From a virus (taxonomy: Duplodnaviria; Heunggongvirae; Uroviricota; Caudoviricetes), in the IMG/VR virus record IMGVR_UViG_2734482773_000003, positions 1 to 43,530 of that record: a stretch of DNA of 43,530 nt; one strand, 5' to 3'. Shown one piece after another: positions 220-20,343 of this stretch; the stretch's first letter is position 1, and every line of letters begins with the position of its first letter. The notes under the pieces were generated by a model. It did not search any database, was not told the DNA's origin, and saw nothing but the letters and a program-made list of their open reading frames with translations. The translations under genes were made by a program, and so were the position numbers.

Positions 220-1520
220 TGATCTCCAGAAAAAGAGCGCCCGGCGCGGGGCCGGGCAAAATGGGGGATAACTGAGCAGTGCTTTCGCACCCAATAGCCA
301 GCTCATAACTGGCTATCAGTTGCTTGACATCCTCCCCGTCCTAAAGGAAGGGGATTCCTACAGCTAGACGGCGATGCCCCGCCGCGAGAATGTTCTTTGC
401 GGCGTTCACGTCGCGGTCATGAGTGGTTCCGCACTCACAACAAGTCCATTCTCTTATTCGCAGGCCTGCTCTACCTTTCGGACTGTTGGCGGAGATAGCC
501 CCGCAACACGAACAAGCTTGGGTGGAATAACTTTCGTTGACCACTTCAAACACCACTGACCGCGCAATCGCTTTATATTCCAGTTGTGTTTTGAGCATGA
601 ACCAGCCAGCGTCCAAAATGCTTTTTGCCATTTTGGTTTTAACCAGTTTCTTACTGCTCGCGTCGCCTACGAATATTGCCGCATGGCTGTTAACCAGCGC
701 CGTGCTGTACTTGTGCAGGGCATCTTTGCGGCGGTTCTTAATTTTGGCGTGTATGGCGCGTACACGGGCTTTTTTGTTTGCACGCTGTGCCTTTCCTAAT
801 GCAGGCTCCAGATCTCGATAGAATCTACCGGCAATCAGCGGATCACCTTCTGACGGGGTGGCGTAGTCTTTCAGCCCTAAATCGATACCCACGGCGGAAG
901 TGGCCGTTGATGGGACAGTTTCGACCTCTACGCAAACATTGAAGTACCAGCGTCCACGGCTGTCTTCTGAAAAGCTTCCAGCACGGAATTTAAATCCTCC
1001 CAAGCCGTAGCTATCCCAGACATTAAAAATCCTGCCAGCGAACCGCACCGCGCCATTTTTCCAGACAGCGCTGCCTATTTTAAACGGCACCCAACCCAAC
1101 GAACGGCGAGATCCCCCACTGACTCGCCAGCGTAAGCGAGAGCGTTTAAATTGCTTCCGTGCCTTGCCGTGAATTGCTGCGATTTCCTGTACGGTATGGC
1201 TGGGGATGGTATACCCGCGCTCTTTTCGCTCTTTAAGGAGCGGTTTCTGAACATCAAACGCCGATAGCCATTGCGGTTTTTGCGCGCCAAAAAAGCCAGC
1301 GTTGCCGTATGCTGCGCTGGTTATCTCGTTTGCCAGATTAAAGATCTGATTGACCTCAAAGGCCATCTGCCGCAAAACGGCTGCGTGCTTGTCTTTAATT
1401 CGGACAGATAGTGTTTTGATCTGAATGTTCATGGTCGTATGTACATATAATGTGTTGATGTTCAGTTGATCGTCGTTATTTGGCGGGATGTCACCCGCCA
1501 CACGGCGATGCGCTGATGCT
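220..1520 (-). mobile_element. TnpB-only IS200/IS605-like insertion sequence (ends approximate)
   Basis: tnpB with no tnpA; subterminal hairpins on both sides of the gene: ggcgggatgtcacccgcc at 1482..1499 (left-end side) and cccggc-gcggg-gccggg at 240..256 (right-end side); exact termini not determined. Confidence 0.45.
341..1432 (-). CDS. tnpB: IS200/IS605-family TnpB (RuvC-like RNA-guided endonuclease), 363 aa
   Basis: ORF 341..1501(-); ATG at 1432 (MNIQIKTLSVRIKDKHA... typical TnpB N-terminus); C-terminal zinc finger CSCCG...CCECG and RuvC-III-like DRDVNAAKNI motif. Confidence 0.8.
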   Translation of the reverse strand: MNIQIKTLSVRIKDKHAAVLRQMAFEVNQIFNLANEITSAAYGNAGFFGAQKPQWLSAFDVQKPLLKERKERGYTIPSHTVQEIAAIHGKARKQFKRSRLRWRVSGGSRRSLGWVPFKIGSAVWKNGAVRFAGRIFNVWDSYGLGGFKFRAGSFSEDSRGRWYFNVCVEVETVPSTATSAVGIDLGLKDYATPSEGDPLIAGRFYRDLEPALGKAQRANKKARVRAIHAKIKNRRKDALHKYSTALVNSHAAIFVGDASSKKLVKTKMAKSILDAGWFMLKTQLEYKAIARSVVFEVVNESYSTQACSCCGAISANSPKGRAGLRIREWTCCECGTTHDRDVNAAKNILAAGHRRLAVGIPFL

Positions 1521-3048: not shown

Positions 3049-3666
3049 TCATGCTGCACGCTCTGTGATTTTCTGAATTTCAGATTCCAGATCTGCAAGG
3101 AAGGTCTTAACCTCAGACTCGATTTCGCGCGCCAGCTCTTCATCGAAATGAATACGCTTCTTGAAATAGGCGAGGTCAGGCGGCAGGCGATCATCGAAAC
3201 TAACGAAATCACACCATTTCCGCCCGGTGCACATCATCTGTGCATGCATTTGCAGCATGTACTGGCGCTTTGGTTCACCGGTTTTCAGCGTTTCGATATG
3301 GGTCCAGGTATTGGGGCATTTGATTTCGATAAGCCCGTCGTCGTTTACAAGTCCGTCCGGGCTGGCTGCGAATCCGGGTATGGTTGGGTGATCGATGAGT
3401 CCAACTTCAGTGATTTCCGCATTGAACTCATTCAGCGCGTACATTTCGCGTGCCACTGGCTCAAGTTCAGTGCCGCGCATCATCGCGGCATTCGAAAACC
3501 CTTCCTCCAGCTTCCCGGTCAGCCGTTGGCAAATCAGCTCGGCCATGTAGTTCTGGCGGCTGGTGGAGTAGCCCGACTTAGTCCGGGCCATGACATCAGC
3601 CAGGCGACTGGCTGTGACCTTGCCGCAGCGCGCAGCAAACCATTCAGGGGTGCGTTGCTCTATCAT
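3049..3666 (-). CDS. YqaJ-like phage exonuclease (lambda Exo-type recombination nuclease)
   Basis: 205-aa ORF, ATG at 3666 with GGAGG upstream; MIEQRTPEWFAARCGKVTASR...IEIKCP matches YqaJ/viral recombinase-exonuclease motifs; adjacent to recT. Confidence 0.8.
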   Translation of the reverse strand: MIEQRTPEWFAARCGKVTASRLADVMARTKSGYSTSRQNYMAELICQRLTGKLEEGFSNAAMMRGTELEPVAREMYALNEFNAEITEVGLIDHPTIPGFAASPDGLVNDDGLIEIKCPNTWTHIETLKTGEPKRQYMLQMHAQMMCTGRKWCDFVSFDDRLPPDLAYFKKRIHFDEELAREIESEVKTFLADLESEIQKITERAA

Positions 3667-4409
3667 TCAGCCTCCGTCTCTGCGACATTGACAGGTTCGG
3701 CGTTGTCGACAGCAAGACTCATGTCATACATGCGTCGTTTCTCAACTGCGCCGATCACCTGCTTCTCTTCGGCGCTCAGCGCCACCCAGAACTCCTGATA
3801 CTTAACGGTTCCAAGGCGCGCGGCGGACTCACCTTTTGCGATCAGTTCCGGGCGGCGGCTATCTGATTCATGGCCCGCATGAACCTCTGCCGTTGTTCCT
3901 TCAATTACTCGCTCTGCCTCGTCCTGGTCGAAGATGCCAGCGAAACCAAAGGCCAGACGCGCGCACTGGATCAGCGTCTTGTGGCGAAGCATGCGGGTAG
4001 GGTGGGACTGCCATGGCTGAGTGTTGCGTTTGCACTCTCCCATGTACTCGGTGACGATGGTCGGGTGCTTACGGTCTTTGCGGTAAATCTTGCAGGTACA
4101 CGCGCCTTCCTCCTTGTCGTAAGAGAACTCCATGCCGTCAAACTGAGGATGCTCGTTGATAATGCGAGCCCATCCATCAACGCCGACGACCGGGACAATC
4201 CCGCCTTTATCTGGGAATGCGTAAATCTCTTTGGTCCATGGGTTCAGGCCGTACTGGTTGGCGACGATCAACAGGGCTGTAAACTGCTCGTCCGTGACGT
4301 TGCCACCTTTGAACGCTGTATTCTTCAGCGTATTCATCAGGTCTGTACCGGCATCCATGCCGAGGCGTGCGGCCAGTTTCCCGGCCATGGTGGAAAGTGC
4401 AGTACTCAT
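3663..4409 (-). CDS. recT: RecT-family single-strand annealing recombinase
   Basis: ORF 3663..4424(-); ATG at 4409 with GAGGGA 7 nt upstream (ORF-table start is TTG); sequence such as TALLIVANQYGLNPWTKEIYAF is RecT-like; paired with the YqaJ exonuclease. Confidence 0.8.
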   Translation of the reverse strand: MSTALSTMAGKLAARLGMDAGTDLMNTLKNTAFKGGNVTDEQFTALLIVANQYGLNPWTKEIYAFPDKGGIVPVVGVDGWARIINEHPQFDGMEFSYDKEEGACTCKIYRKDRKHPTIVTEYMGECKRNTQPWQSHPTRMLRHKTLIQCARLAFGFAGIFDQDEAERVIEGTTAEVHAGHESDSRRPELIAKGESAARLGTVKYQEFWVALSAEEKQVIGAVEKRRMYDMSLAVDNAEPVNVAETEAE

Positions 4410-4427
4410 TGTTAAATCCCTCAAAAA

Positions 4428-4712
4428 TTAAAACGGGCAGCCGGTACGGTGTTCCCAGTCGTATTCCGCCTGGGCGTAAGCAACTACCGAAATGAAATCG
4501 TTGTAGGCCTCGCCAGCTTTATCGCTGCGAAGCCCTTCGTATGGGCTGGAGTCTATCGGGATCGTGAAGTGGAAGAGGCCGGACGGCTCTTTAGGCATCA
4601 TGTCGATGATTTTCTGCGCCCGGTCGTCGATCCACTTCTCTTTCTCGTCGGTGATCTGCTGCTCAGCCCAGCGCCGATCTTCGATGCGGTCGTAAGTGAG
4701 GTATGCGTTCAT
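4428..4712 (-). CDS. hypothetical phage protein (94 aa)
   Basis: ORF with ATG at 4712 and GAGG upstream; tightly packed in the leftward operon. Confidence 0.5.
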   Translation of the reverse strand: MNAYLTYDRIEDRRWAEQQITDEKEKWIDDRAQKIIDMMPKEPSGLFHFTIPIDSSPYEGLRSDKAGEAYNDFISVVAYAQAEYDWEHRTGCPF

Positions 4713-11814: not shown

Positions 11815-12113
11815 TGAAAGGCAAACAGGCAATTCTGCGTTATCTCGAAACGCACCGGACCTTCACTGCGAAGGATGTGGCCACAGAGTGCGTCATGACC
11901 ATCAACTGCATCACCAAGAACGCTATCGATCTGGAGCGGGCCAGGAAGATTGTGCGCGTGAGCAAGGTCTGGCGAACGGTGACTTACCGCCTGGCGACGC
12001 CGGAAGAGCAAGATGGTACCGCGCGCAGCTGCACCAACGGAATATTTCAGGAGTGCCGCAACAGCGCGGCGATGAAGCGAGTATTGATGGTTTGGGGGAG
12101 GGTAGGGGTATGA
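11814..12113 (+). CDS. hypothetical phage protein (99 aa)
   Basis: ATG 11814 overlapping the helicase stop (TGATG), AGGGGG upstream. Confidence 0.5.
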   Translation: MKGKQAILRYLETHRTFTAKDVATECVMTINCITKNAIDLERARKIVRVSKVWRTVTYRLATPEEQDGTARSCTNGIFQECRNSAAMKRVLMVWGRVGV

Positions 12114-12544
12114 GCAACAAATACGAAGATCTGATTAAAAACGCCAGGGTGAATGCAGAATGTGGTGAGCACATGTCACCGGCAGAAGTTACGACTCTGC
12201 TTAACGTGTTTGAAACCACATTCGCTGCGCTGGCTGCGGAGAATGCGGGGCTGAAGCAGTTCCCTGACCAAATCGTTAGCTTCATCGGAAAGTTGGGCTC
12301 AAGCGAAATCGGCAGAGACACGAAAGAAAAAATTGAGTTCGCTGCGAATAAGGTCAAAACCCCAGCCACCGACGCTTTCCTGGCTGAAGTGCGGGCGCAG
12401 GGTGTGGAGATGTTTGCCGCACATAAGCGAGAACGACAGCAGGCTCTGCGTAGCCGAAGCATGAGGATGTCTGAAGAGGCTGCTGGCATGGCCGCAGATG
12501 CTGAGAACTTCGCCGACGAGCTTCGCAAAGGAGTGCAGTCATGA
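12110..12544 (+). CDS. hypothetical phage protein (144 aa)
   Basis: ATG 12110 overlapping the previous stop (ATGA) with G-rich Shine-Dalgarno; the longer ORF 11753..12544 is an out-of-frame read through the helicase 3' end. Confidence 0.5.
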   Translation: MSNKYEDLIKNARVNAECGEHMSPAEVTTLLNVFETTFAALAAENAGLKQFPDQIVSFIGKLGSSEIGRDTKEKIEFAANKVKTPATDAFLAEVRAQGVEMFAAHKRERQQALRSRSMRMSEEAAGMAADAENFADELRKGVQS

Positions 12545-13188
12545 GCGATAGATTTTACATGCTTTGTACTCGCGAAACGGTTGGCAGTAACGCGTCATTC
12601 CACTGCCACAACGGCAACGGATATAGCTCCAATATAGACCGCGCCCACGTGTACACCCGTGAAGAAGCTCAAAGAAGCTGGGAATTGGGTAGAGAGATTG
12701 ATCAGCCGGTTTGCGCTGACAGTGTTGATTCCATGGCTGTCTGGCATGTCGATTGTCAGTACATACCTACCGAAAGTGTTATTGAGCCTGGCTGTGAGTC
12801 CTATGTGGCCTACAAAAAAGGCAGTTGGAACGGTAACGATGTGTACTGGTTGCAACATGGAGGCCTTCCAACTGACGACTTCAGTAAGGCATTCGTTTTT
12901 GTATCCGCCAACACGGCAGAGCCTGGCATTGTCTGGATTCCTTTTGCTTTAGCTGACAAGGCTAAGCGCCGCACGTTCAGCATCAATGAGTTTAACCGAC
13001 GCACCATGGTTCAGGCGGCAGGGCTTGTCATGCCTGAGTGGCTGAAAAAGCACAACCGAAAAAAATCACGCAGCGGTAAGGTTCGCTGGAATTGCCCTTG
13101 CTGCGGAAAGATTAGCTGGCAGCTAAATCCATACGATTTCGATGGCTGCAGTGACATTGAATGTGAAGGTTGGAGGACCGCCCAATGA
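12541..13188 (+). CDS. hypothetical phage protein with C-terminal Cys cluster (215 aa)
   Basis: ATG 12541 overlapping the upstream stop; C-terminal WNCPCCGK...CSDIECEGW suggests a metal-binding module. Confidence 0.5.
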   Translation: MSDRFYMLCTRETVGSNASFHCHNGNGYSSNIDRAHVYTREEAQRSWELGREIDQPVCADSVDSMAVWHVDCQYIPTESVIEPGCESYVAYKKGSWNGNDVYWLQHGGLPTDDFSKAFVFVSANTAEPGIVWIPFALADKAKRRTFSINEFNRRTMVQAAGLVMPEWLKKHNRKKSRSGKVRWNCPCCGKISWQLNPYDFDGCSDIECEGWRTAQ

Positions 13189-13889
13189 GCAACATCGACA
13201 AACGCGATATTCACAATCAGCAATTGAAGGCGTTTATTACTGGCTTCCTTACCGACCCAGCGCATGACAATCAGTCGCCTCGCAGCATGACTGCAGAGGT
13301 GTTTCGTATCGCGCTGGCATCTCTCGAAGCGGATCCTGTGGCGTGGCGATCGCTTTATTACGAGAATCACGGCCTTCTGACAGATTCAAAAAATGTCCTG
13401 GCATCCTGGCAAAAGCAAGGCTGGGAATGTGAGCCGCTTTACACCGCCCCGCCAGCACCGATATCTGATTCGCTCCTGTCAGATCTCTTGACGATTGCGA
13501 AAACTGCCGCCAATGCGGCAGACGAGTGCGCACATGCTGAGTTTGGCGACGACTCGATGGAACATTCAGCCGCAATAGCTGACTGGGAGCGCCGCGCCGC
13601 CATGCTTCAGGGTGCCGATGGCAACTCTCCTGTGATTGCGAAAGCATACGACATTGAAGCGTTCGGCGTATTCAGTGCAACTGAAGGCAAAAATGGTCTG
13701 CTGCTGCAGATCGAGCAATTTTGGTTCGGTACCGAAAACTGCCCGCAGATAGGTAAGGAAAATATGGTTCCGAAGTTTGCTCTTCAGGCAATCATCAATA
13801 GGCTTCAGGCTCATTGCAATAGCATGGGAGAAGATACGCTGATTGATATTTTTGCATCTTCAGCAGCACCTCAGCAGGAGGATAAATGA
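13185..13889 (+). CDS. hypothetical phage protein (234 aa)
   Basis: ORF 13170..13889; ATG at 13185 overlaps the previous stop (ATGA). Confidence 0.5.
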   Translation: MSNIDKRDIHNQQLKAFITGFLTDPAHDNQSPRSMTAEVFRIALASLEADPVAWRSLYYENHGLLTDSKNVLASWQKQGWECEPLYTAPPAPISDSLLSDLLTIAKTAANAADECAHAEFGDDSMEHSAAIADWERRAAMLQGADGNSPVIAKAYDIEAFGVFSATEGKNGLLLQIEQFWFGTENCPQIGKENMVPKFALQAIINRLQAHCNSMGEDTLIDIFASSAAPQQEDK

Positions 13890-14185
13890 CTCCACTACTC
13901 TGCCCATTTTGCGAATCGACAGCGCTTGGTATTGGCTACTCATTCAGTATTATGGGAAAGAAGCGCTACGTCCACTGCAAATGTGGTGCTCATGGGCCAT
14001 TAAAGCGCAATAAGGCTGAAGCAATTTCTGCATGGAATAGCCGAATGAAGGTGTGGTTTTACGACCCAGAAACGCTGGCATGTGCTGGCGAGCGCAGGAG
14101 AACTGCGGCTTACATTGATAGTCTTAAGCAAGACGGCTTCACGCTAGAACTAATTGCAGCACCGCAGCAGGAGGTACAGCCGTGA
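13886..14185 (+). CDS. lar: Lar-family restriction-alleviation protein
   Basis: N-terminus MTPLLCPFCESTALGIG...HCKCGAHGP...AISAWNSR fits the Lar/RalR pattern CPFCG...C.C...GP...A.AWN.R (from memory). Confidence 0.6.
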   Translation: MTPLLCPFCESTALGIGYSFSIMGKKRYVHCKCGAHGPLKRNKAEAISAWNSRMKVWFYDPETLACAGERRRTAAYIDSLKQDGFTLELIAAPQQEVQP

Positions 14186-14397
14186 GTAATCACATCATCA
14201 AATATGACTATCGTGACGGCGTAAAACTTGCGAAGCATGAAACAGAAACATGGTGCGGACATAAGCCTCAATTTTCTGACTGGTTGTTTCAGGACGCTCA
14301 GCATGCACTGTTGAGCATTGAGCAGGGTTCATTGCAGGTTCCATGCAAGAAGTGCCTCGCTGCAATCGTCAAAACGGCTAAGGAGGTGAAGCCGTGA
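14182..14397 (+). CDS. hypothetical phage protein (71 aa)
   Basis: ATG 14182 overlapping the lar stop; co-oriented. Confidence 0.45.
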   Translation: MSNHIIKYDYRDGVKLAKHETETWCGHKPQFSDWLFQDAQHALLSIEQGSLQVPCKKCLAAIVKTAKEVKP

Positions 14398-14519
14398 TTA
14401 CAGCGCTGGCGTGGCATTTCAATGACAGCATTTATGGTTGGATGCTGGCAATAACAGCAATTCAGGATTTGGCTGTAGCGGCTTATATTTTCAGCTCGTG
14501 TAGAGGTCGCCATGCCTAA
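14394..14519 (+). CDS. small hydrophobic peptide (41 aa), GTG start
   Basis: not in the ORF table (under 60 aa); GTG at 14394 overlapping the upstream stop, preceded by AAGGAGGT 7 nt upstream; translated VITALAWHFNDSIYGWMLAITAIQDLAVAAYIFSSCRGRHA. Confidence 0.35.
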   Translation: MITALAWHFNDSIYGWMLAITAIQDLAVAAYIFSSCRGRHA

Positions 14520-14663
14520 CCCATTCGACGCAGCAAGGCTGTAAGAAAAATAGCAAACTATTTTAACTCATTGATATATACACATGTTTTACAATTTAAC
14601 TGCTTCATTTCCTCTTGCATGGTGGTACATTCATTTGGCGATGTAAAACCAACAGGAGGCGTT

Positions 14664-14945
14664 ATGAGTATCGATCAACTTTGCATGAAACAAGAGTGTT
14701 GGGCATTGGAGATGCTTGGTAGGGTTGGCGCTTTAACGCAGTGCCCTCATCATGAGGGCACTTATGTTGATGAGGGCATAGAAGAGTCCGACATCTACAA
14801 ATACGCAGCCGGAGCTTATAAAAAAAGCAACGGTAGTCATCTATTCGAAAGCTTTAAAGAGATGACTGATGCTGTTAAAAGCGCATACGAAGAACACGGT
14901 GGAAATGATGTTTGCCCGCAGTGCTTTAAACGCGTGGACGACTAA
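14664..14945 (+). CDS. hypothetical phage protein (93 aa) with Cys/His pairs
   Basis: ORF 14571..14945; internal ATG at 14664 preceded by AGGAGG 6 nt upstream; contains CPHH and CPQC motifs. Confidence 0.5.
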   Translation: MSIDQLCMKQECWALEMLGRVGALTQCPHHEGTYVDEGIEESDIYKYAAGAYKKSNGSHLFESFKEMTDAVKSAYEEHGGNDVCPQCFKRVDD

Positions 14946-14951
14946 CTCATT

Positions 14952-14975
14952 GGCCTCTCCGGAGGCCTTTCTCTT
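14952..14975 (+). terminator. intrinsic terminator
   Basis: hairpin ggcctc-tccg-gaggcc 14952..14967 followed by tttctctt. Confidence 0.5.
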
Positions 14976-14977
14976 CA

Positions 14978-15131
14978 GTTGATTTTGTTGAATCAACCGT
15001 CCATACTTTCTTTGCTGATGGTCTGAACACCCATTGGTGACTTCTGCGCATTTAAGGGGACTTAAATGCGACCACAATCTGAACTCCTCACATTGTCACA
15101 GATGCAGAAATGCACCTGCGATTTTCTGCAT
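14978..15131. promoter_or_regulatory. cluster of three inverted repeats upstream of ninB
   Basis: gttgatt-ttgttg-aatcaac 14978..14997; gcatttaag-ggga-cttaaatgc 15048..15069; atgcagaaa-(12 nt)-tttctgcat 15102..15131; function unknown. Confidence 0.4.
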
Positions 15132-15157
15132 TCTGCGGTTTCCGTTAAGGAGGCCGT

Positions 15158-15613
15158 ATGACTCTGCCAGTAGACGGTATCAAACTCCATCGTGGCAACT
15201 TCGCGGCCATCGGCCAGCAGATTCAGCCATTGCTGGATGCCGGGCAGTGCTTCCGCCTGCAGGTTAAGCCGTGGCGAGAGAAGCGCAGCCTGTCACAGAA
15301 CGCGCTCAGCCACATGTGGTACACGGAAATCAGCGAGTACCTCATCGCCCGCGGCAAGACCTTCGCTACGCCTGAGTGGGTCAAAGACGCGATGAAGCAC
15401 ACCTATCTCGGCTACGAAAGCAAAGACCGTGTAGACGTCGTGTCCGGCGAGGTCACCACCGTCCAATCCCTCCGCCATACGTCTGATCTGGAAACTGGCG
15501 AAATGTACATCTTCCTGTGCAAGGTCGAAGCCTGGGCGATGAATATCGGCTGCCACCTGACCATTCCGCAGAGCTGTGAATACCAGCAGCTGCGCGATAA
15601 GCAGGAGGCCTGA
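15158..15613 (+). CDS. ninB: NinB-like recombination protein
   Basis: AAGGAGG upstream of ATG 15158; REKRSLSQNALSHMW resembles the lambda NinB RNRSLDQNRKLWA segment (from memory). Confidence 0.6.
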   Translation: MTLPVDGIKLHRGNFAAIGQQIQPLLDAGQCFRLQVKPWREKRSLSQNALSHMWYTEISEYLIARGKTFATPEWVKDAMKHTYLGYESKDRVDVVSGEVTTVQSLRHTSDLETGEMYIFLCKVEAWAMNIGCHLTIPQSCEYQQLRDKQEA

Positions 15614-15783
15614 TGTCTACTCCACTTTCCCGCATCATCACAAACGAAATATTCCGCGTTCCTGCGCGCCGCCAGCGTAAGCCTGCGGTTAAGCCGTCCG
15701 ACATCCCGACACTGAAGGGCTACACCGCCCGTCTGGTGGATCAGAAATGGCTGCGTCTCGCGGCGAGGAGAAAATCTGCATGA
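15613..15783 (+). CDS. ninE: NinE-like small basic protein (56 aa)
   Basis: not in the ORF table; ATG 15613 overlaps the ninB stop and its stop overlaps the phosphatase start; tail [19 protein letters not shown] parallels lambda NinE ...YTAHLWDIRWLRRRARK (from memory). Confidence 0.5.
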
Positions 15784-16448
15784 GCATGTATCAACGCATT
15801 AATGGCGCTGAATGGCGCAATATTTTCGTCGTCGGCGATCTGCATGGGTGCTACACGCTGCTGATGAATGAGCTCGAAAAAGTTTCGTTCGACCCTGCGT
15901 GTGATTTGCTGATTTCGGTTGGAGACCTTGTTGACCGCGGCGCGGAAAACGTCGAGTGCCTGGAGTTGATTACTATGCCTTGGCTCCGGGCTGTGCGAGG
16001 AAACCATGAGCAGATGATGATTGATGGGCTGTCGGAGTATGGAAACGTCAATCACTGGCTGGTAAATGGTGGCGGTTGGTTCTTCAATCTCGACTATGAC
16101 AAAGAAGTGCTGGCTAAGGCTCTGGTTCACAAAGCGGCTGAGTTACCACTCATCATCGAGTTGGTTACCTCCGATCGAAAAATAGTCATCTGTCACGCTG
16201 ACTACCCGCACAACGAATATGAATTTGATAAGCCAGTGCCGAAAGAAATGGTCATCTGGAATCGTGAGCGGGTTAGCGACGCTCAGGACGGCATTGTCTC
16301 GCCGATATCCGGTGCTGATCTGTTTATCTTCGGACACACCCCAGCGCGCCAGCCCCTGAAGTATGCCAACCAGATGTACATCGATACCGGTGCCGTGTTC
16401 TGCGGAAACCTCACGCTGGTACAGGTTCAAGGTGGTGCCCATGCGTAA
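15780..16448 (+). CDS. ninI: lambda-type Ser/Thr protein phosphatase (metallophosphoesterase)
   Basis: ORF 15747..16448; ATG 15780 with GAGGAG upstream; GDLHG, GDLVDRG, GNHE motifs; near-collinear with the lambda phosphatase. Confidence 0.85.
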
Positions 16449-17073
16449 ACCATCCCGCCGTAAGTGCAAAGTATGCGGTGAATACTTCGTGCCGAAATTC
16501 CACGACATCCGGATCCGCTGGTGCTGTCCGGAGCACGGCGCAATCCTCGCGATGGAGGAGCGCGAAAAGGAGAAGGTTAAAGCCGCGGCTAAGCGCATCA
16601 AGGAGCGCAAAGAGAAAGAGCGCGCGGAACGCCGGGATCTGAAAGCGAGAAAGGTGGCGCTAAAAACGAAACCGCAGTGGAGATCGGAAGCGCAGGCGGC
16701 ATTCAACCGGTACGTCCGTCTGAGGGATGCAGGTAAGCCGTGCATCAGCTGCGGCAGGCTGCCAGAGCAGAAGTTTGGCGGAACCATGGACTGCGGACAC
16801 TATCGCACCCGTGGCGCTGCCGCGCATCTGGCTTTCAACCTTCACAATACCGCTGCCCAGTGTGTCTATTGCAACCGGGATCGGGACGGCGCGCAAAAGG
16901 CATTTGAACAGGGCCTTATCGAGCGCATCGGTGCCGAAAAAGTTGAGGCGATAAACAACGATAACTCCGTCCGCCGGTTCGACATCCAATACCTGCAACG
17001 CATCAAATCCATTTTCACCCGTAAAGCCCGCGCGCTGGAGAAGCGCCGCGCCCGTCAACAGGAGGCAGCATGA
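16441..17073 (+). CDS. ninG: NinG-like protein
   Basis: ORF 16363..17073; ATG 16441 with AGGTGG upstream; conserved [28 protein letters not shown] motifs matching lambda NinG. Confidence 0.75.
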
Positions 17074-17282
17074 TAAAGCCAGTTTTCGGCATAGGTGGCC
17101 CGCTGACGGACGCCGATTTTAACGCTATCAGGATGAGCAAGAGGCAGGCACAACACGCGGCTGACAGGCTAGCAAGGAAGACGGTATCTGATGGGCTATC
17201 CACTTACGCAAAAGGATTCGTATTTGATGCAGGTGAGCATTACCGAATTTCTGTGTGCGTAACTAGGCCGAGGGCGATTTGA
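17070..17282 (+). CDS. hypothetical nin-region protein (70 aa)
   Basis: ATG 17070 overlapping the ninG stop. Confidence 0.45.
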   Translation: MIKPVFGIGGPLTDADFNAIRMSKRQAQHAADRLARKTVSDGLSTYAKGFVFDAGEHYRISVCVTRPRAI

Positions 17283-17394
17283 TGACCAGTGACCAGATAG
17301 CCAGATACCAGGCCGAAAGCGTTAAGCGCGCCAGTCTGCCGCCAATAGCAAAGCACAGCCAGACCAAAACCAACCAGCCAAAGAAGGAGGCCGC

Positions 17395-17895
17395 ATGAAA
17401 CTGGAATTAACCAACGAGCAGCATCAGTGGATTGATCAGTGGCTCCAGTTGTGGGGTGCATGGTCGCAGACCGGGAAGATAGACAAGGCGATGATCAACA
17501 TGATTGCCAAGTTTATGGCGACCGTCGAACCGCAGCAGGCATCTCGCCCGGTATGTAGCGACGACGACGGTATGCTGATTGACGCAGTGCTGCGCCATTA
17601 CCTGAAAAATATCGACGAGAACGCCTGGCGTGTTGTCTTCGCCTATTACGTCTGCAACTCCAGTGAGATCCGCATCGCCAGCTGGCAGCACGCTGTGAGC
17701 AAACCTCGAGTGATGAAGACGCGTGGCGGGAATCAGTATAAGCACCCGAGCATATCCACCATACGCCGGGAGGTGAAGGAAACACTTAACGCGGCACTGT
17801 TCTGCCTGTATCAACCGCTGCAAAATGCCTTTATCAGCCGCGATAATGTGAACAAAGTTGCAAAAAATGTTCACAACGTGCTTGCTTTTCAATGA
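17395..17895 (+). CDS. putative late-gene antiterminator (Q position)
   Basis: AAGGAGG upstream of ATG 17395; last early gene before the terminator/tRNA/lysis region; assignment is by position, no motif-level match claimed. Confidence 0.45.
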   Translation: MKLELTNEQHQWIDQWLQLWGAWSQTGKIDKAMINMIAKFMATVEPQQASRPVCSDDDGMLIDAVLRHYLKNIDENAWRVVFAYYVCNSSEIRIASWQHAVSKPRVMKTRGGNQYKHPSISTIRREVKETLNAALFCLYQPLQNAFISRDNVNKVAKNVHNVLAFQ

Positions 17896-17957
17896 ACAAA
17901 TGAGCAGAATAATTCGTATATGTTGCCATTGTTGTGTGTGACATGAATGAATAACCA

Positions 17958-17984
17958 GCCTCGCCATCGTGCGGGGCTTTTTTA
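17958..17984 (+). terminator. intrinsic terminator (tR'-like) immediately downstream of the Q-position gene
   Basis: hairpin gcctcgc-catcgt-gcggggc (one G-U) 17958..17977 followed by tttttt. Confidence 0.5.
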
Positions 17985-17987
17985 TTG

Positions 17988-18063
17988 GCTGATTTAGCTC
18001 AGTAGGTAGAGCGCCTGCCTTGTAAGCAGGATGTCGGCGGTTCAACTCCGTCAATCAGCACCA
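17988..18063 (+). tRNA. tRNA-Thr (anticodon UGU)
   Basis: 76-nt cloverleaf folded by hand: 7-bp acceptor stem GCTGATT/AATCAGC, D-arm GCTC/GAGC, anticodon stem CCTGC/GCAGG with loop CTTGTAA (U33, anticodon TGT, A37), T-arm GGCGG/CCGTC with TTCAACT loop, encoded CCA. Confidence 0.8.
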
Positions 18064-18117
18064 GAATCCCGCCAGCTGGGATAGGCCGTAGAGCCGACAT
18101 TGCCTTACCCTCATCTT

Positions 18118-18142
18118 CCCGGCCTGTCGCCGGGTTTTTTAT
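18118..18142 (+). terminator. intrinsic terminator downstream of the tRNA
   Basis: hairpin cccggc-ctgtc-gccggg 18118..18134 followed by ttttttatt. Confidence 0.55.
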
Positions 18143-18242
18143 TCAGGCCGCAGACAATCACTTTCAGATGCCCCGTAGCTATCGTGTTTGACGGCCTTTC
18201 CCACTACACGAACAGCACCCGCTAACTACGCGAGGTGAGAGC

Positions 18243-18467
18243 ATGTATCGCATGGAAAAAATAACCACTGGTGCTGCCTATGGCGCTTCAGCCGGGAGCA
18301 TCCTAAACGGCATGCTTAATGCCTACAGCCCCGAGCAGTGGAACGCTATCGGCGTGCTGGTGGGTATCATCATTGCCGTACTGACGTATCTGACGAATCT
18401 CTATTTCAAGATCCGCGAAGACAACCGCCGCAGCAGGAGCCGAGATGAACCCAACGTTGAGGAATAA
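18243..18467 (+). CDS. class II holin (phage 21 S-type pinholin) with dual-start motif
   Basis: [19 protein letters not shown]...[16 protein letters not shown] closely parallels the S21 pinholin (from memory); two in-frame starts M1 (18243) and M4 (18252) separated by Arg. Confidence 0.8.
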
Positions 18468-18939
18468 GCTGGTGGGTGCCATTGTTGGCGGATCCGGAGC
18501 CATCACCATTGCTGCAGTAATGCTGGGCAATGCCGATGGGCTGGAAGGACGGCGCTATTACGCCTATCAGGATGTGGTCGGCGTCTGGACTGTTTGCGAT
18601 GGGCACACCGGAGCGGACATTCGCCGCGGTCACCGATACACCGACAAAGAGTGCGACAACATGCTGAAGGCCGATCTGCGAAAGGTGGCAAATGCTATCG
18701 ACCCGCTGATCAAGGTTCGCATTCCTGAGCCAACCCGCGCCGCGCTTTACTCCTTCACCTATAACGTTGGCTCTGGTGCTTTTGCCAGCTCGACGCTGCT
18801 GAAGAAGCTGAACGCCGGAGACGTGCCGGGGGCATGCAAAGAACTGCAACGCTGGACGTATGCCGGTGGCAAGCAGTGGAAGGGACTGATAACCCGGCGC
18901 GAGATTGAGCGCGAAGTTTGCGAGTGGGGCCAGAAATGA
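18445..18939 (+). CDS. SAR endolysin (T4-lysozyme-type muramidase with N-terminal signal-anchor-release domain)
   Basis: N-terminal weakly hydrophobic Gly/Ala-rich [20 protein letters not shown]; catalytic E...D...T arrangement ([23 protein letters not shown]); start overlaps the holin 3' end. Confidence 0.85.
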
Positions 18940-19397
18940 GCCGATTAACAGCAATCATCTGTGCTGTCGTTATCTGCCTGCTCGTTTCCATGGCCTGGGC
19001 GATTAACCACTACCGCGACAACGCCATCGCTTATAAAGACCAGCGCGATAAAGCCACTGAGAAACTCAGCCTGGCTAACACCACCATAAAAGACATGCAG
19101 GCCCGCCAGCGTGATGTCGCTGCACTGGATGCCAAATACACCGGAGAACTAGCTGATGCGAAAGAAACCATTGAGCGTCTGCATAGCGATGTCATTGCTG
19201 GCCGTAAGCGGCTGCAGCTCAACGCAAACTGTCCCGCGAACGGAACGACCGGCTCCAGCGGCATGGGCGATGCTTCCGGCCCCCGACTTACTGACTCCGC
19301 TGAACGGGATTATTTCACCCTCAGAGAAAGAATCGCCACAGTGATGAAGCAGGTTGGCTATCTTCAGGAATATCTAAGCACTCAGTGCTTGAAGTAA
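18936..19397 (+). CDS. Rz: Rz-like inner-membrane spanin
   Basis: ORF 18918..19397; ATG 18936 overlapping the endolysin stop (ATGA); N-terminal TM helix [20 protein letters not shown] then coiled coil. Confidence 0.75.
19156..19344 (+). CDS. Rz1: Rz1-like outer-membrane lipoprotein spanin, embedded in Rz in the +1 frame
   Basis: signal peptide with lipobox LAVSGC, Pro-rich mature region, C-terminal [10 protein letters not shown] resembling lambda Rz1; fully nested inside Rz. Confidence 0.7.
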
Positions 19398-19465
19398 AGG
19401 TTTTCTTAATAGTTGCATCTGGTTGTATTGTAGGCTCTGTCTACAACAAAATAAGGTGCTCATAT

Positions 19466-20047
19466 ATGCAACAGTTGCTGAGTGGAATAGATGATTGCTT
19501 GTCTAAAAAGAATTGGTTTGGTGCTTTATTCATAGCAATATCACTTCCTGACATCTGTGGCGCGACAGAGGATAAAATCAAAGGAAATGGCGCGAGGTAC
19601 AAGGACTGGTTTAATCGCTATCTTAAGCCAAGATATAACGCTGATAACATGTATGACTATTTAAGTCTCACCAGCCCTGCAATGGTTCAGAGCATGCCTG
19701 AAGGAATAAAGCAAAGCTTAAGGGCGCAAAAACCCGTAGTCTCATTCACTGCAGAAGACTGTTGGAGTTTAAGGAATGCATGTTTGCATGAAGGCGTTGA
19801 TGAAACGAAGCTAAGGAAGTTTAAGATAACGACCCCTGCGCGAGAAAACCTTCATGCACATATGAATGCTTTTAATGGTGTTCTGCAATTAGATGTTATT
19901 GAGTTATGTAATGATATAGCTAATGGCGTGAGGAGATGGCTTGTTGATATGCAAGAAAATCCTGAGGTTATGGAAAAACTTACGAAAATGATGACCATCG
20001 ATAGTCTGATTTTTGACGGGTTTATTGAATACAAAACTGCAAAATAA
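19466..20047 (+). CDS. AT-rich inserted gene: HEPN-motif protein (candidate RNase / abortive-infection-type toxin)
   Basis: ORF 19385..20047; ATG 19466 with AAGGTG 7 nt upstream; visibly AT-rich against GC-rich flanks; contains RNACLH (Rx4H, HEPN-type); own terminator downstream; sits between Rz and the terminase genes. Confidence 0.5.
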   Translation: MQQLLSGIDDCLSKKNWFGALFIAISLPDICGATEDKIKGNGARYKDWFNRYLKPRYNADNMYDYLSLTSPAMVQSMPEGIKQSLRAQKPVVSFTAEDCWSLRNACLHEGVDETKLRKFKITTPARENLHAHMNAFNGVLQLDVIELCNDIANGVRRWLVDMQENPEVMEKLTKMMTIDSLIFDGFIEYKTAK

Positions 20048-20070
20048 TACAGCCATATTATTGAATTGTA

Positions 20071-20100
20071 ATGCCATCACCATGCTGATGGCATTTTCTT
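20071..20100 (+). terminator. intrinsic terminator after the inserted HEPN-motif gene
   Basis: hairpin atgccatca-ccatgc-tgatggcat 20071..20094 followed by tttctt. Confidence 0.55.
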
Positions 20101-20124
20101 CAACAGTGGCTTGTGAGGGTCTTC

Positions 20125-20343
20125 ATGTCCGACATCTACCAAATCACGCTAACCACTCAAACAGGCGAAACCTTCACGGGCAAGATGTCACGACGTCAGC
20201 CTGAGTTGGTTAATGGCTTTGTGCCGCTGGCGACAGAGACGGGCGAGTGGCTTTATTTCGCTCCGGCCGATGTGAAGCGCGTGCAGTTTACGCCAGTACC
20301 GGCAGAGCAGACCGAACAGCCAGCAGGACAAACAACGGAGTAA
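20125..20343 (+). CDS. hypothetical small protein (72 aa)
   Basis: ORF 20113..20343; ATG 20125 with GAGGGT upstream; immediately precedes the terminase small subunit. Confidence 0.45.
   Translation: MSDIYQITLTTQTGETFTGKMSRRQPELVNGFVPLATETGEWLYFAPADVKRVQFTPVPAEQTEQPAGQTTE

Follow-up and report, generated by a model that had tools for sequence, protein, structure and literature searches.

A tRNA-Thr(UGU) gene immediately downstream of the tR'-equivalent terminator in a probable phage 21-type late-gene switch

The tRNA gene and its neighbours

The window analysed here is a stretch of 43,530 nucleotides (nt) of DNA from a virus of the Caudoviricetes (IMG/VR record IMGVR_UViG_2734482773_000003), and our subject is the segment between its gene for the late antiterminator Q and its lysis genes. 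This segment contains a predicted late promoter (pR') that overlaps the end of Q, an intrinsic terminator (T1), a gene for tRNA-Thr(UGU), a second intrinsic terminator (T2) and then the lysis cassette. An earlier note on this DNA had described such a tRNA between a gene in the position of Q and the lysis genes, bracketed by two intrinsic terminators and starting only 4 nt after the T-run of the first. These claims are all borne out by the gene calls, folds, z-scores and relatives presented below.

The tRNA gene is located at 17988-18063 on the plus strand, is 76 nt long and encodes its own CCA. ARAGORN, a check that the earlier note had proposed, accepts the cloverleaf and finds this one tRNA, with the anticodon TGT, in the whole 43.5-kb window. 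The Rfam tRNA model scores it at 75.1 bits (gathering score 29, E 8e-15), and at the Rfam gathering threshold the window contains no structured RNA besides this tRNA. The tRNA folds at minimum energy into a clean cloverleaf, in which GCUGAUU at the acceptor end pairs with AAUCAGC, giving G1-C72 and C2-G71, followed by the discriminator base A73 and the encoded CCA. The anticodon arm reads CCUGC/CUUGUAA/GCAGG, with UGU at positions 34-36 and A37 present. The identity elements of threonyl-tRNA synthetase (ThrRS), according to the E. coli rules, are G1-C72, C2-G71, G35 and U36. All of them can be read from the predicted structure of the window tRNA, which looks functional.

The same gene is annotated by RefSeq in the closest E. 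coli record. It is 94.7% identical to the tRNA-Thr of Klebsiella phage 5 LV-2017, 89.5% identical to that of P1 and 79.7% identical to that of phage 21, and it belongs to a phage lineage common to P1, T4-like and Klebsiella phages. An origin as a host-derived copy or an att-site remnant was ruled out by an identity of 77.6% to the host gene thrU, the phage lineage and the position in the middle of the prophage.

The gene upstream of the tRNA (17395-17895, +) encodes a protein of 166 amino acids (aa) of the Q21 family of late antiterminators (Pfam PF06530, 76 bits). A phmmer search matched it to the Q21 chains 6P18 and 6JNX in PDB over residues 2-155 (154 residues, E 3.3e-45), and it is 90% identical to Q of HK639 and 48% identical to Q of phage 21. 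Downstream of the tRNA are genes for a P21-type class II holin (18243-18467, +; Pfam PF04971), a lysozyme (18445-18939, +; PF00959) and an Rz-type spanin (18918-19397, +; PF03245). This lysis cassette (18243-19397) represents the first late genes downstream, and the RefSeq annotation of a near-identical locus agrees.

The predicted late promoter region

The elements of the late promoter region, from the -35 hexamer through the pause element, span positions 17882-17925 and overlap the end of Q. The predicted -35 hexamer of pR', TTGCTT (17882-17887, +), was placed by homology alone and is offset by 1 nt from TTGACA, which is annotated in phage 21. It is followed by a predicted Q-binding element (QBE; 17891-17906, +), which overlaps the stop codon of Q and reads AATGAACAAATGAGCA. 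Alignment to phage 21 resolves it into two tandem 8-bp direct repeats, QBEu AATGAACA (17891-17898, +) and QBEd AATGAGCA (17899-17906, +). In the crystal structure of Q21 bound to its QBE, from which the element was annotated in the phage 21 record (OL657228), two 8-bp subsites are arranged as a direct repeat (10.1101/651190). The window repeats, AATGAACA AATGAGCA, match those of phage 21, ATTGAGCA AATGAGCA, at 14 of 16 bases. The 16-mer has a single match in the window when up to two mismatches are allowed, where 0.06 would be expected by chance, and the exact motif AATGARCAAATGAGCA is present in 25 of the 134 loci that were fetched.

There are two candidates for the -10 hexamer on the plus strand. 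The alignment suggests CAGAAT (17905-17910), with a spacer of 17 nt from TTGCTT, while a consensus scan pairs AATAAT (17908-17913) with TTTTCA (17886-17891) over a spacer of 16 nt, with 9 of 12 positions matching (1 site found, 2.1 expected, and so not above chance). The annotated -10 of phage 21 overlaps the end of QBEd, and the -10 in the window is its positional equivalent. The pair called at pR' is the one promoter-like site that the scan identified between positions 16500 and 19500.

The putative transcription start, A17918 (+), was placed by column alignment with the start in phage 21. It is followed immediately by a predicted sigma-dependent pause element (SDPE), TATGTTG (17919-17925, +), which aligns with the annotated SDPE of phage 21, TAAGCTG, and the gap between QBEd and the SDPE is 12 nt in both phages. 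The block with the start and the SDPE is nearly invariant among five relatives, as is the whole of 17880-17986, although the DNA identity of the Q genes themselves is just 83-91% or so. From these comparisons, we infer the promoter, the start site, the pausing and the Q dependence.

The two terminators

T1 is located at 17957-17986 (+). Its hairpin (17957-17978) has eight pairs, six of which are G-C, and a loop of 6 nt, and is followed by TTTTTTATT up to position 17986, such that the tRNA starts 4 nt past the T6 run. A hairpin homologous to T1 was annotated as a terminator in HK639 by its authors, and the position of T1 is that of the annotated terminator of phage 21. Because the window matches the order and spacing of the late region of phage 21, T1 can be taken as the equivalent of tR'. 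The earlier note had placed the tRNA inside the region that holds pR', qut and tR' in lambda; with T1 as the tR' equivalent, it is instead located immediately downstream of that region.

T2, between the tRNA and the lysis genes (18118-18143, +), consists of a hairpin of six G-C pairs with a loop of 5 nt (18118-18134) and another TTTTTTATT. The folding energies are -13.7 kcal/mol for T1 (z -3.2) and -11.8 kcal/mol for T2 (z -3.4), and none of 200 shuffled sequences folded as well. A crude terminator scan returned five sites in total, where 3.4 ± 1.8 would be expected, and is thus not significant by itself. It should also be noted that this simple scanner misses the known terminator of phage 21, which has a long loop, so that its negative results are weak.

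Comparisons with relatives support both hairpins. The stem and loop of T1 contain one variable base across five relatives, where HK639 has a C in place of the T of a U-G pair. The change is one-sided, from U-G to C-G, and the same hairpin motif is found behind two different types of Q. T2 is present in 124 loci as 37 sequence variants with compensatory changes that give three covarying stems (CCCGGC/GCCGGG, CCTGGC/GCCAGG and GCCAGC/GCTGGC). A T-rich tract follows every version of the stem, and reads T6ATT in most variants. Between the tRNA and T2 is a conserved spacer (18064-18117, +), which is found in relatives with and without tRNAs and contains GAGCCGACATTGCCTTACCCTCA at 18091-18113. This exact 23-mer occurs in at least 119 IMG/VR contigs.

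A variable tRNA slot among relatives

To describe the site between T1 and the spacer, here called the slot, we used 124 loci that share the spacer and T2, collected by scanning IMG/VR with the 23-mer (at least 119 contigs) and supplemented with other loci. The content of the slot ranges from zero to four tRNAs in many combinations of Thr, Asn, Arg, CAU-type, Gly and Phe. It is empty in 48 loci, contains Arg(UCU) in 16, and Thr(UGU), a CAU-type tRNA or an Asn-Thr pair in nine each, with other combinations in the rest. At least four types of Q are located upstream of it. A terminator is predicted upstream of the tRNAs in 56 of 62 tRNA-bearing loci, and in 55 of these 56 its T-run starts 7-13 nt before the first base of the first tRNA. 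It is also predicted in 47 of the 48 empty loci. The position just behind tR' is thus one where tRNA genes recur, in very variable sets, downstream of Q genes of several families.

The variability extends to close relatives. Among loci with the same Q and the same T1 as the window, the slot is empty in L005 and L008, contains a tRNA-Arg in L006, and contains a tRNA-Asn and a tRNA-like fragment in HK639. L007, with a different Q but the same T1 hairpin and the same holin, contains Asn-Thr-Arg. Both terminators are retained in the tRNA-less loci L005 and L008, which rules out T2 as a terminator specific to the tRNA.

Two lineages of tRNA-Thr(UGU) occur in the slot, as counted upstream of the 23-mer in the IMG/VR loci L015-L133: a 75-nt type with the arm GCAGC/GCUGC (25 loci) and the 76-nt P1-like type of the window (seven loci). 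Of the slots scored in the 124 loci, six hold a tRNA-Thr identical to that of the window over all 76 nt; one of these six entries is the window, and two are fetches of the one locus in E. coli 23CRST004.

Several observations were made on individual slots. The CAU-type tRNAs, labelled Met(CAU), may be of the Ile2 type. The tRNA-less loci L005 (1670-1690) and L008 (2176-2196) retain GCGGTACGCCGCAC(T/A)CA between T1 and the spacer, which resembles the two halves of a tRNA acceptor stem with the interior deleted. HK639 (L001, 3270-3345) has a second tRNA-like 3' half, TGCGGGTTCGATTCCCGCTGCCCGCTCCA, after its tRNA-Asn, which is not called by ARAGORN, and four terminators are annotated between its Q and lysis genes. 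In the Klebsiella phage Kp4864-1 (L003), an insert of about 690 bp (1806-2503) with two small open reading frames (ORFs) on the reverse strand (128 aa and 68 aa) lies flush with the 5' edge of the tRNA-Thr. This tRNA (2505-2580) has U37 rather than A37 in its loop, CUUGUUA, while A37 has been reported as invariant in the substrates of P2 Old. In P1 (L013, 1418-1571), a tandem pair of Asn(GUU) and Thr(UGU), which are two of the three tRNAs reported as targets of PARIS AriB, is part of the C1-controlled ban operon.

A proposed late-gene switch with a tRNA as cargo

We consider it likely that the locus is a Q-dependent late-gene switch of the phage 21 type that carries a tRNA as cargo, with the tRNA probably serving as a replacement for a host tRNA destroyed by nucleases. 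According to this model, the host sigma-70 polymerase would start at pR' (near position 17918), just past the Q gene, and pause at the -10-like element TATGTTG. Without Q, transcription would terminate at T1 and yield a leader RNA with a predicted length of about 65 nt. Once Q has accumulated, two Q protomers would bind the tandem repeats AATGAACA and AATGAGCA and load onto the paused polymerase. In Q21 antitermination, the RNA exit channel is narrowed such that hairpins cannot form (10.1101/651190). The Q-loaded polymerase would likewise become resistant to terminators and cross T1, the tRNA and T2 into the genes for the holin, the endolysin, the spanin and the particle. RNase P and 3' processing would then excise the tRNA from the head of the late transcript, and the bulk of the tRNA would be produced when the late proteins are translated.

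The earlier note had argued that expression of the tRNA depends on read-through of the first terminator and could be tied to late antitermination. The first part holds because T1 ends 4 nt before the tRNA, which leaves no room for a promoter, so that any transcript that reaches the tRNA must cross T1. The second part is supported by the Q21-family Q and the phage 21-like order of QBE, SDPE and terminator, from which a dependence on Q would follow by homology. T2 is best seen as a second barrier in front of the lysis genes, because it is present whether the slot is filled or empty. It would halt any Q-independent leak past T1 before the lethal lysis genes are reached. Such a leak would still yield the tRNA, as a transcript ending at T2, and some Q-independent expression in lysogens may thus occur.

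What the tRNA may be for

Two toxic anticodon-stem nucleases are known to act on the host counterpart of this tRNA. P2 Old is triggered when RecBCD is inhibited by Gam, and its killing results from removal of the anticodon arm from host tRNA-Thr(UGU). Phage tRNA-Thr(UGU), including that of phage 21, provide rescue, and resistance to Old requires an altered CNG motif together with a shortened anticodon stem (PMC12445682). The cut made by PARIS AriB falls between positions 40 and 41, beside the motif U36-A-A-U39, in Lys(UUU), Thr(UGU) and Asn(GUU), and PARIS is neutralised by the T5 variants of these three tRNAs (PMC12409363). The window encodes a phi80-type GamL, an inhibitor of the host nuclease RecBCD, in the early left operon (4428-4712, -; 150.9 bits with the NCBIfam equivalog model NF033500, cut-off 40). 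Because of this gene, the phage would be expected to trigger sensors of the Old type. A lambda-type Gam had also been considered for 4428-4712, but was rejected in favour of the phi80 type, as the Pfam and PDB searches gave no match.

The window tRNA has C31-G39 where the host tRNA has A31-U39, and the motif U36-A-A-U39 has thereby been lost. At the AriB site it reads U36-A-A-G39-C40-A41, with the substitution beside the cleavage site. G39 is common to the tRNA-Thr of T5, P1 and phage 21 and to both Thr lineages in the slot, while host thrU has U39. Its sequence thus predicts resistance to AriB. The published signature of resistance to Old was looked for in the window tRNA, and neither of its two elements is present, which instead predicts sensitivity to Old. 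We infer an anti-nuclease role, and the most likely selective value of the tRNA would be to replace host tRNA-Thr(UGU) destroyed by Toprim anticodon-stem nucleases such as PARIS AriB and P2 Old, with escape from PARIS-type systems ranked above escape from Old. A modest benefit in codon supply for ACA-rich tail genes comes second, and counter-defence is accordingly ranked slightly above a role in codon supply only.

That second role could also be the only one. In such a case, the tRNA would solely increase the decoding of ACA in ACA-rich late genes and have no anti-nuclease role, which we regard as possible although not likely. The codon comparison that the earlier note had proposed gives it partial support: ACA is more frequent in the late genes (10.9 per 1000 codons, 26 genes) than in a host sample (6.6-7.0, 35 genes; odds ratio 1.67, p 0.003), but the enrichment is modest, about 1.6-fold, and the difference from the early genes (6.5, 14 genes) is not significant (p 0.057). 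It is also concentrated in two tail genes, with 17 and 30.5 ACA per 1000 codons, which hold 33 of the 77 late ACA codons. Nearly all E. coli genomes have just one copy of thrU, and other tRNAs in the slot read the rare codons AGA, GGA and probably AUA. However, the Asn(GUU) and Phe(GAA) tRNAs in the slot do not read rare codons. An ACA bias was reported and the same role proposed for SfI, whose authors nevertheless saw no bias that would explain its tRNA-Asn (PMC3636060). Furthermore, all phage versions of the tRNA differ from that of the host in the anticodon stem beside the AriB site, which would not be needed for codon supply.

Several points weigh against a Q-dependent, anti-nuclease tRNA. 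The promoter hexamers are weak matches, with two alternative assignments of the -10, and there could be a Q-independent contribution to tRNA expression, depending on how tight T1 is. Lambda-like antiterminated early transcription through Q might also cross T1. The excess of ACA is small, and not one ACA codon is present in the genes for the holin and the endolysin. For an anti-Old role, the CNG motifs C28-U29-G30 and C40-A41-G42 are identical to those of host thrU, A37 is kept, and C27 pairs with G43 in a full 5-bp stem, CCUGC/GCAGG, with no shortening. For an anti-PARIS role, the change at position 39 was assayed solely as U39A in tRNA-Lys, and the sequence of the cleavage site alone does not decide sensitivity to AriB (PMC12409363).

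A broader hypothesis, which we put forward tentatively, is that T1, the slot and T2 form a portable unit in which lambdoid phages carry tRNA cargo at the start of their late operons. The conserved terminator flanks would allow recombinational swapping of zero to four tRNAs. Selection would act mainly on the ability of the cargo to stand in for host tRNAs (Thr UGU, Asn GUU, Arg UCU and others) while being insensitive to the Toprim and other anticodon nucleases with which competing prophages and satellites attack them. In the window, a tRNA-Thr of the P1 lineage would then offset PARIS-type or Old-type killing provoked by GamL, and leakage through T1 might already give the lysogen partial protection.

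Expression without Q and other explanations

Expression of the tRNA might also be largely independent of Q. If pR' were constitutive and T1 leaky, T1, the tRNA and T2 would make up a small constitutive tRNA operon that alters the phenotype of the lysogen, for example its tolerance to tRNA-cleaving toxins, to which Q would only add. The location of a covarying T2 right after the slot, which gives transcripts that pass T1 a defined end before the lysis genes, fits this idea, as do the four terminators annotated between Q and the lysis genes of HK639 and the terminator that follows the three tRNAs of Stx2c phage 2851. As tRNAs are stable, even a read-through of a few per cent could matter. However, T1 and T2 are both also found in relatives with an empty slot, which indicates that T2 is not there for the tRNA, and T1 looks strong, with a G+C-rich stem of 8 bp and a U6 tract. 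We therefore consider this explanation rather unlikely, and prefer a switch in which Q provides the bulk of the expression.

Nor does the tRNA look like a non-functional relic, left as a recombination scar or as a target for mobile elements and carried along with the terminator module. The slot is highly variable and empty in 48 of 124 loci, the tRNA-less relatives keep an 18-nt stretch that resembles a collapsed tRNA, and the insert of about 690 bp in Kp4864-1 is located at the 5' edge of the tRNA. Yet the cloverleaf is intact, with an Rfam score of 75 bits and with G1-C72, C2-G71, A73 and CCA in place, the same tRNA sequence recurs in related contigs, close relatives have been kept in P1 and T4-like phages, and the related tRNA of phage 21 is functional in vivo (PMC12445682). 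A relic is thus very improbable. Even more so is a promoter of its own for the tRNA, independent of pR' and Q: the tRNAs of Stx2c phage 2851 are closely preceded by a promoter-like site, but here this candidate was rejected, since only 4 nt separate the T-run of T1 from the tRNA, transcripts that start upstream of T1 must pass it, and the scan of 16500-19500 identified no promoter-like site other than pR'.

Other features of the window and its closest relative

The exact arrangement described here is rare, and only 2 of 5,426 complete E. coli genomes cover at least 80% of a query of 1.4 kb. The window is not the same as its closest E. coli prophage, that of 23CRST004: the two agree completely over the 1.4-kb query and at 99.7% over 15036-20307, but are mosaic elsewhere. 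The 23CRST004 prophage contains a gene of the Abi family in its nin region (L134, 31491-32387), where the window (12064-15036) is unrelated and gives no BLAST alignment.

Elsewhere in the window, the phi80-type GamL is part of a recombination module (3049-4712, -) with a YqaJ-type exonuclease and RecT. Near the left end of the prophage, an ORF at 341-1432 (-) resembles TnpB and IS605 OrfB (PF07282 and PF01385), and its homologue is named RNA-guided endonuclease InsQ/TnpB in RefSeq. An ORF of 193 aa (19466-20047, +) between the spanin and the small terminase, in a moron-like position, has no match in Pfam, NCBIfam or PADLOC. A PADLOC search of six accessory ORFs identified no defence genes near the locus.

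Comparison with known systems

The layout of the locus is not unusual: phage 21 and its relatives have the same design, and the late region of phage 21 is the closest known system. The phage 21 record (OL657228) annotates, in this order, the -35 of pR', QBEu, QBEd, the -10, the start, the SDPE, the terminator, tRNA-Asn, tRNA-Thr and the S21 holin, with no gap between the terminator feature and the tRNAs. The window resembles phage 21 in the family of Q, in the order and spacing of the -35, QBE repeats, -10, start, pause element and terminator, in a tRNA that abuts the terminator, in the presence of tRNA-Thr(UGU), and in the P21-type class II holin and lysozyme that follow; in phage 21, these lysis genes encode the S21 pinholin and a signal-anchor-release (SAR) endolysin. 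However, identity between the two Q proteins is just 48%, the leader in the window is about 20-30 nt longer and the sequence of the terminator hairpin is unrelated. While phage 21 has two tRNAs, the window has one and lacks the Asn. The tRNA-Thr lineages are 79.7% identical, with a full 5-bp CNG stem in the window and a shortened and altered stem in phage 21. Furthermore, T2 follows the tRNA in the window, whereas in phage 21 such a terminator is neither annotated nor detected by the scanner, which is weak on long loops.

The locus in HK639 is also similar, with a Q that is 90% identical, a nearly identical pR', QBE and SDPE, the same T1 hairpin and a tRNA directly after T1. It differs in that this tRNA is a tRNA-Asn followed by a tRNA-like fragment, and in having three further annotated terminators and another lysis cassette. 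The E. coli prophage relatives L005 and L008 combine T1 and T2 with an empty slot, and L006 has a tRNA-Arg. For the pR'-6S RNA-tR' region of lambda, the corresponding Q is placed by Pfam in a family other than that of Q21. Its leader has a length of about 194 nt, and there is no tRNA after lambda tR'.

Stx2c phage 2851 (L010) is similar in that a Q21-family Q is followed by tRNAs upstream of the late genes, with a terminator-like hairpin after the tRNAs. However, it has three tRNAs (Ile, Arg, Arg) that are located about 300 nt from Q and do not abut a terminator, and a toxin operon is placed between the tRNAs and the lysis genes. In this phage, we also observed a promoter-like site (3253-3281) just upstream of the tRNAs, and the terminator-like hairpin (3549-3566) is located before stx2A. 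In phage 933W, stx and its tRNAs are established products of the late operon.

A tRNA-Asn and/or a tRNA-Thr(UGU) have been described downstream of gene Q in SfI, Sf6, ST64T, PS3 and phage 21 (PMC3636060). These phages share with the window the position, the anticodon and the argument for codon supply from an ACA bias, but their tRNA-Thr is usually paired with an Asn, and that study (PMC3636060) gives no terminator context. Nuclease-resistant tRNA-Thr(UGU), namely tRNA-Thr21 of phage 21, tRNA-Thr6 of a library (PMC12445682) and that of T5 (PMC12409363), share the anticodon and the phage origin with the window tRNA. The tRNA-Thr of T5, P1 and phage 21 have also lost U36-A-A-U39, as has the window tRNA with its C31-G39. 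The CNG pseudo-palindrome and a stem of full length, which are features of Old-sensitive tRNAs (PMC12445682), are both retained in the window tRNA, in contrast to the Old-resistant ones.

These comparisons do not overturn current understanding, and the architecture would not surprise a specialist. They do give a second, clean and completely parsed case of the late switch of phage 21, with a Q that is just 48% identical to Q21, which is useful for comparing the conserved features of the QBE, the pause element and their spacing. The cutting of tRNA-Thr(UGU) by P2 Old and PARIS was shown in 2024-2025, which makes tRNAs at the tR' site of temperate phages plausible counter-defence genes that are timed to late translation. 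As the window tRNA keeps the cleavage motif of Old and yet has G in place of U39 like that of T5, it offers a natural test case for the determinants of nuclease sensitivity. Relative to the known systems, the points of interest are thus the changing content of the cargo site and the combination, in the tRNA it holds, of features that point to sensitivity to one nuclease and resistance to another.

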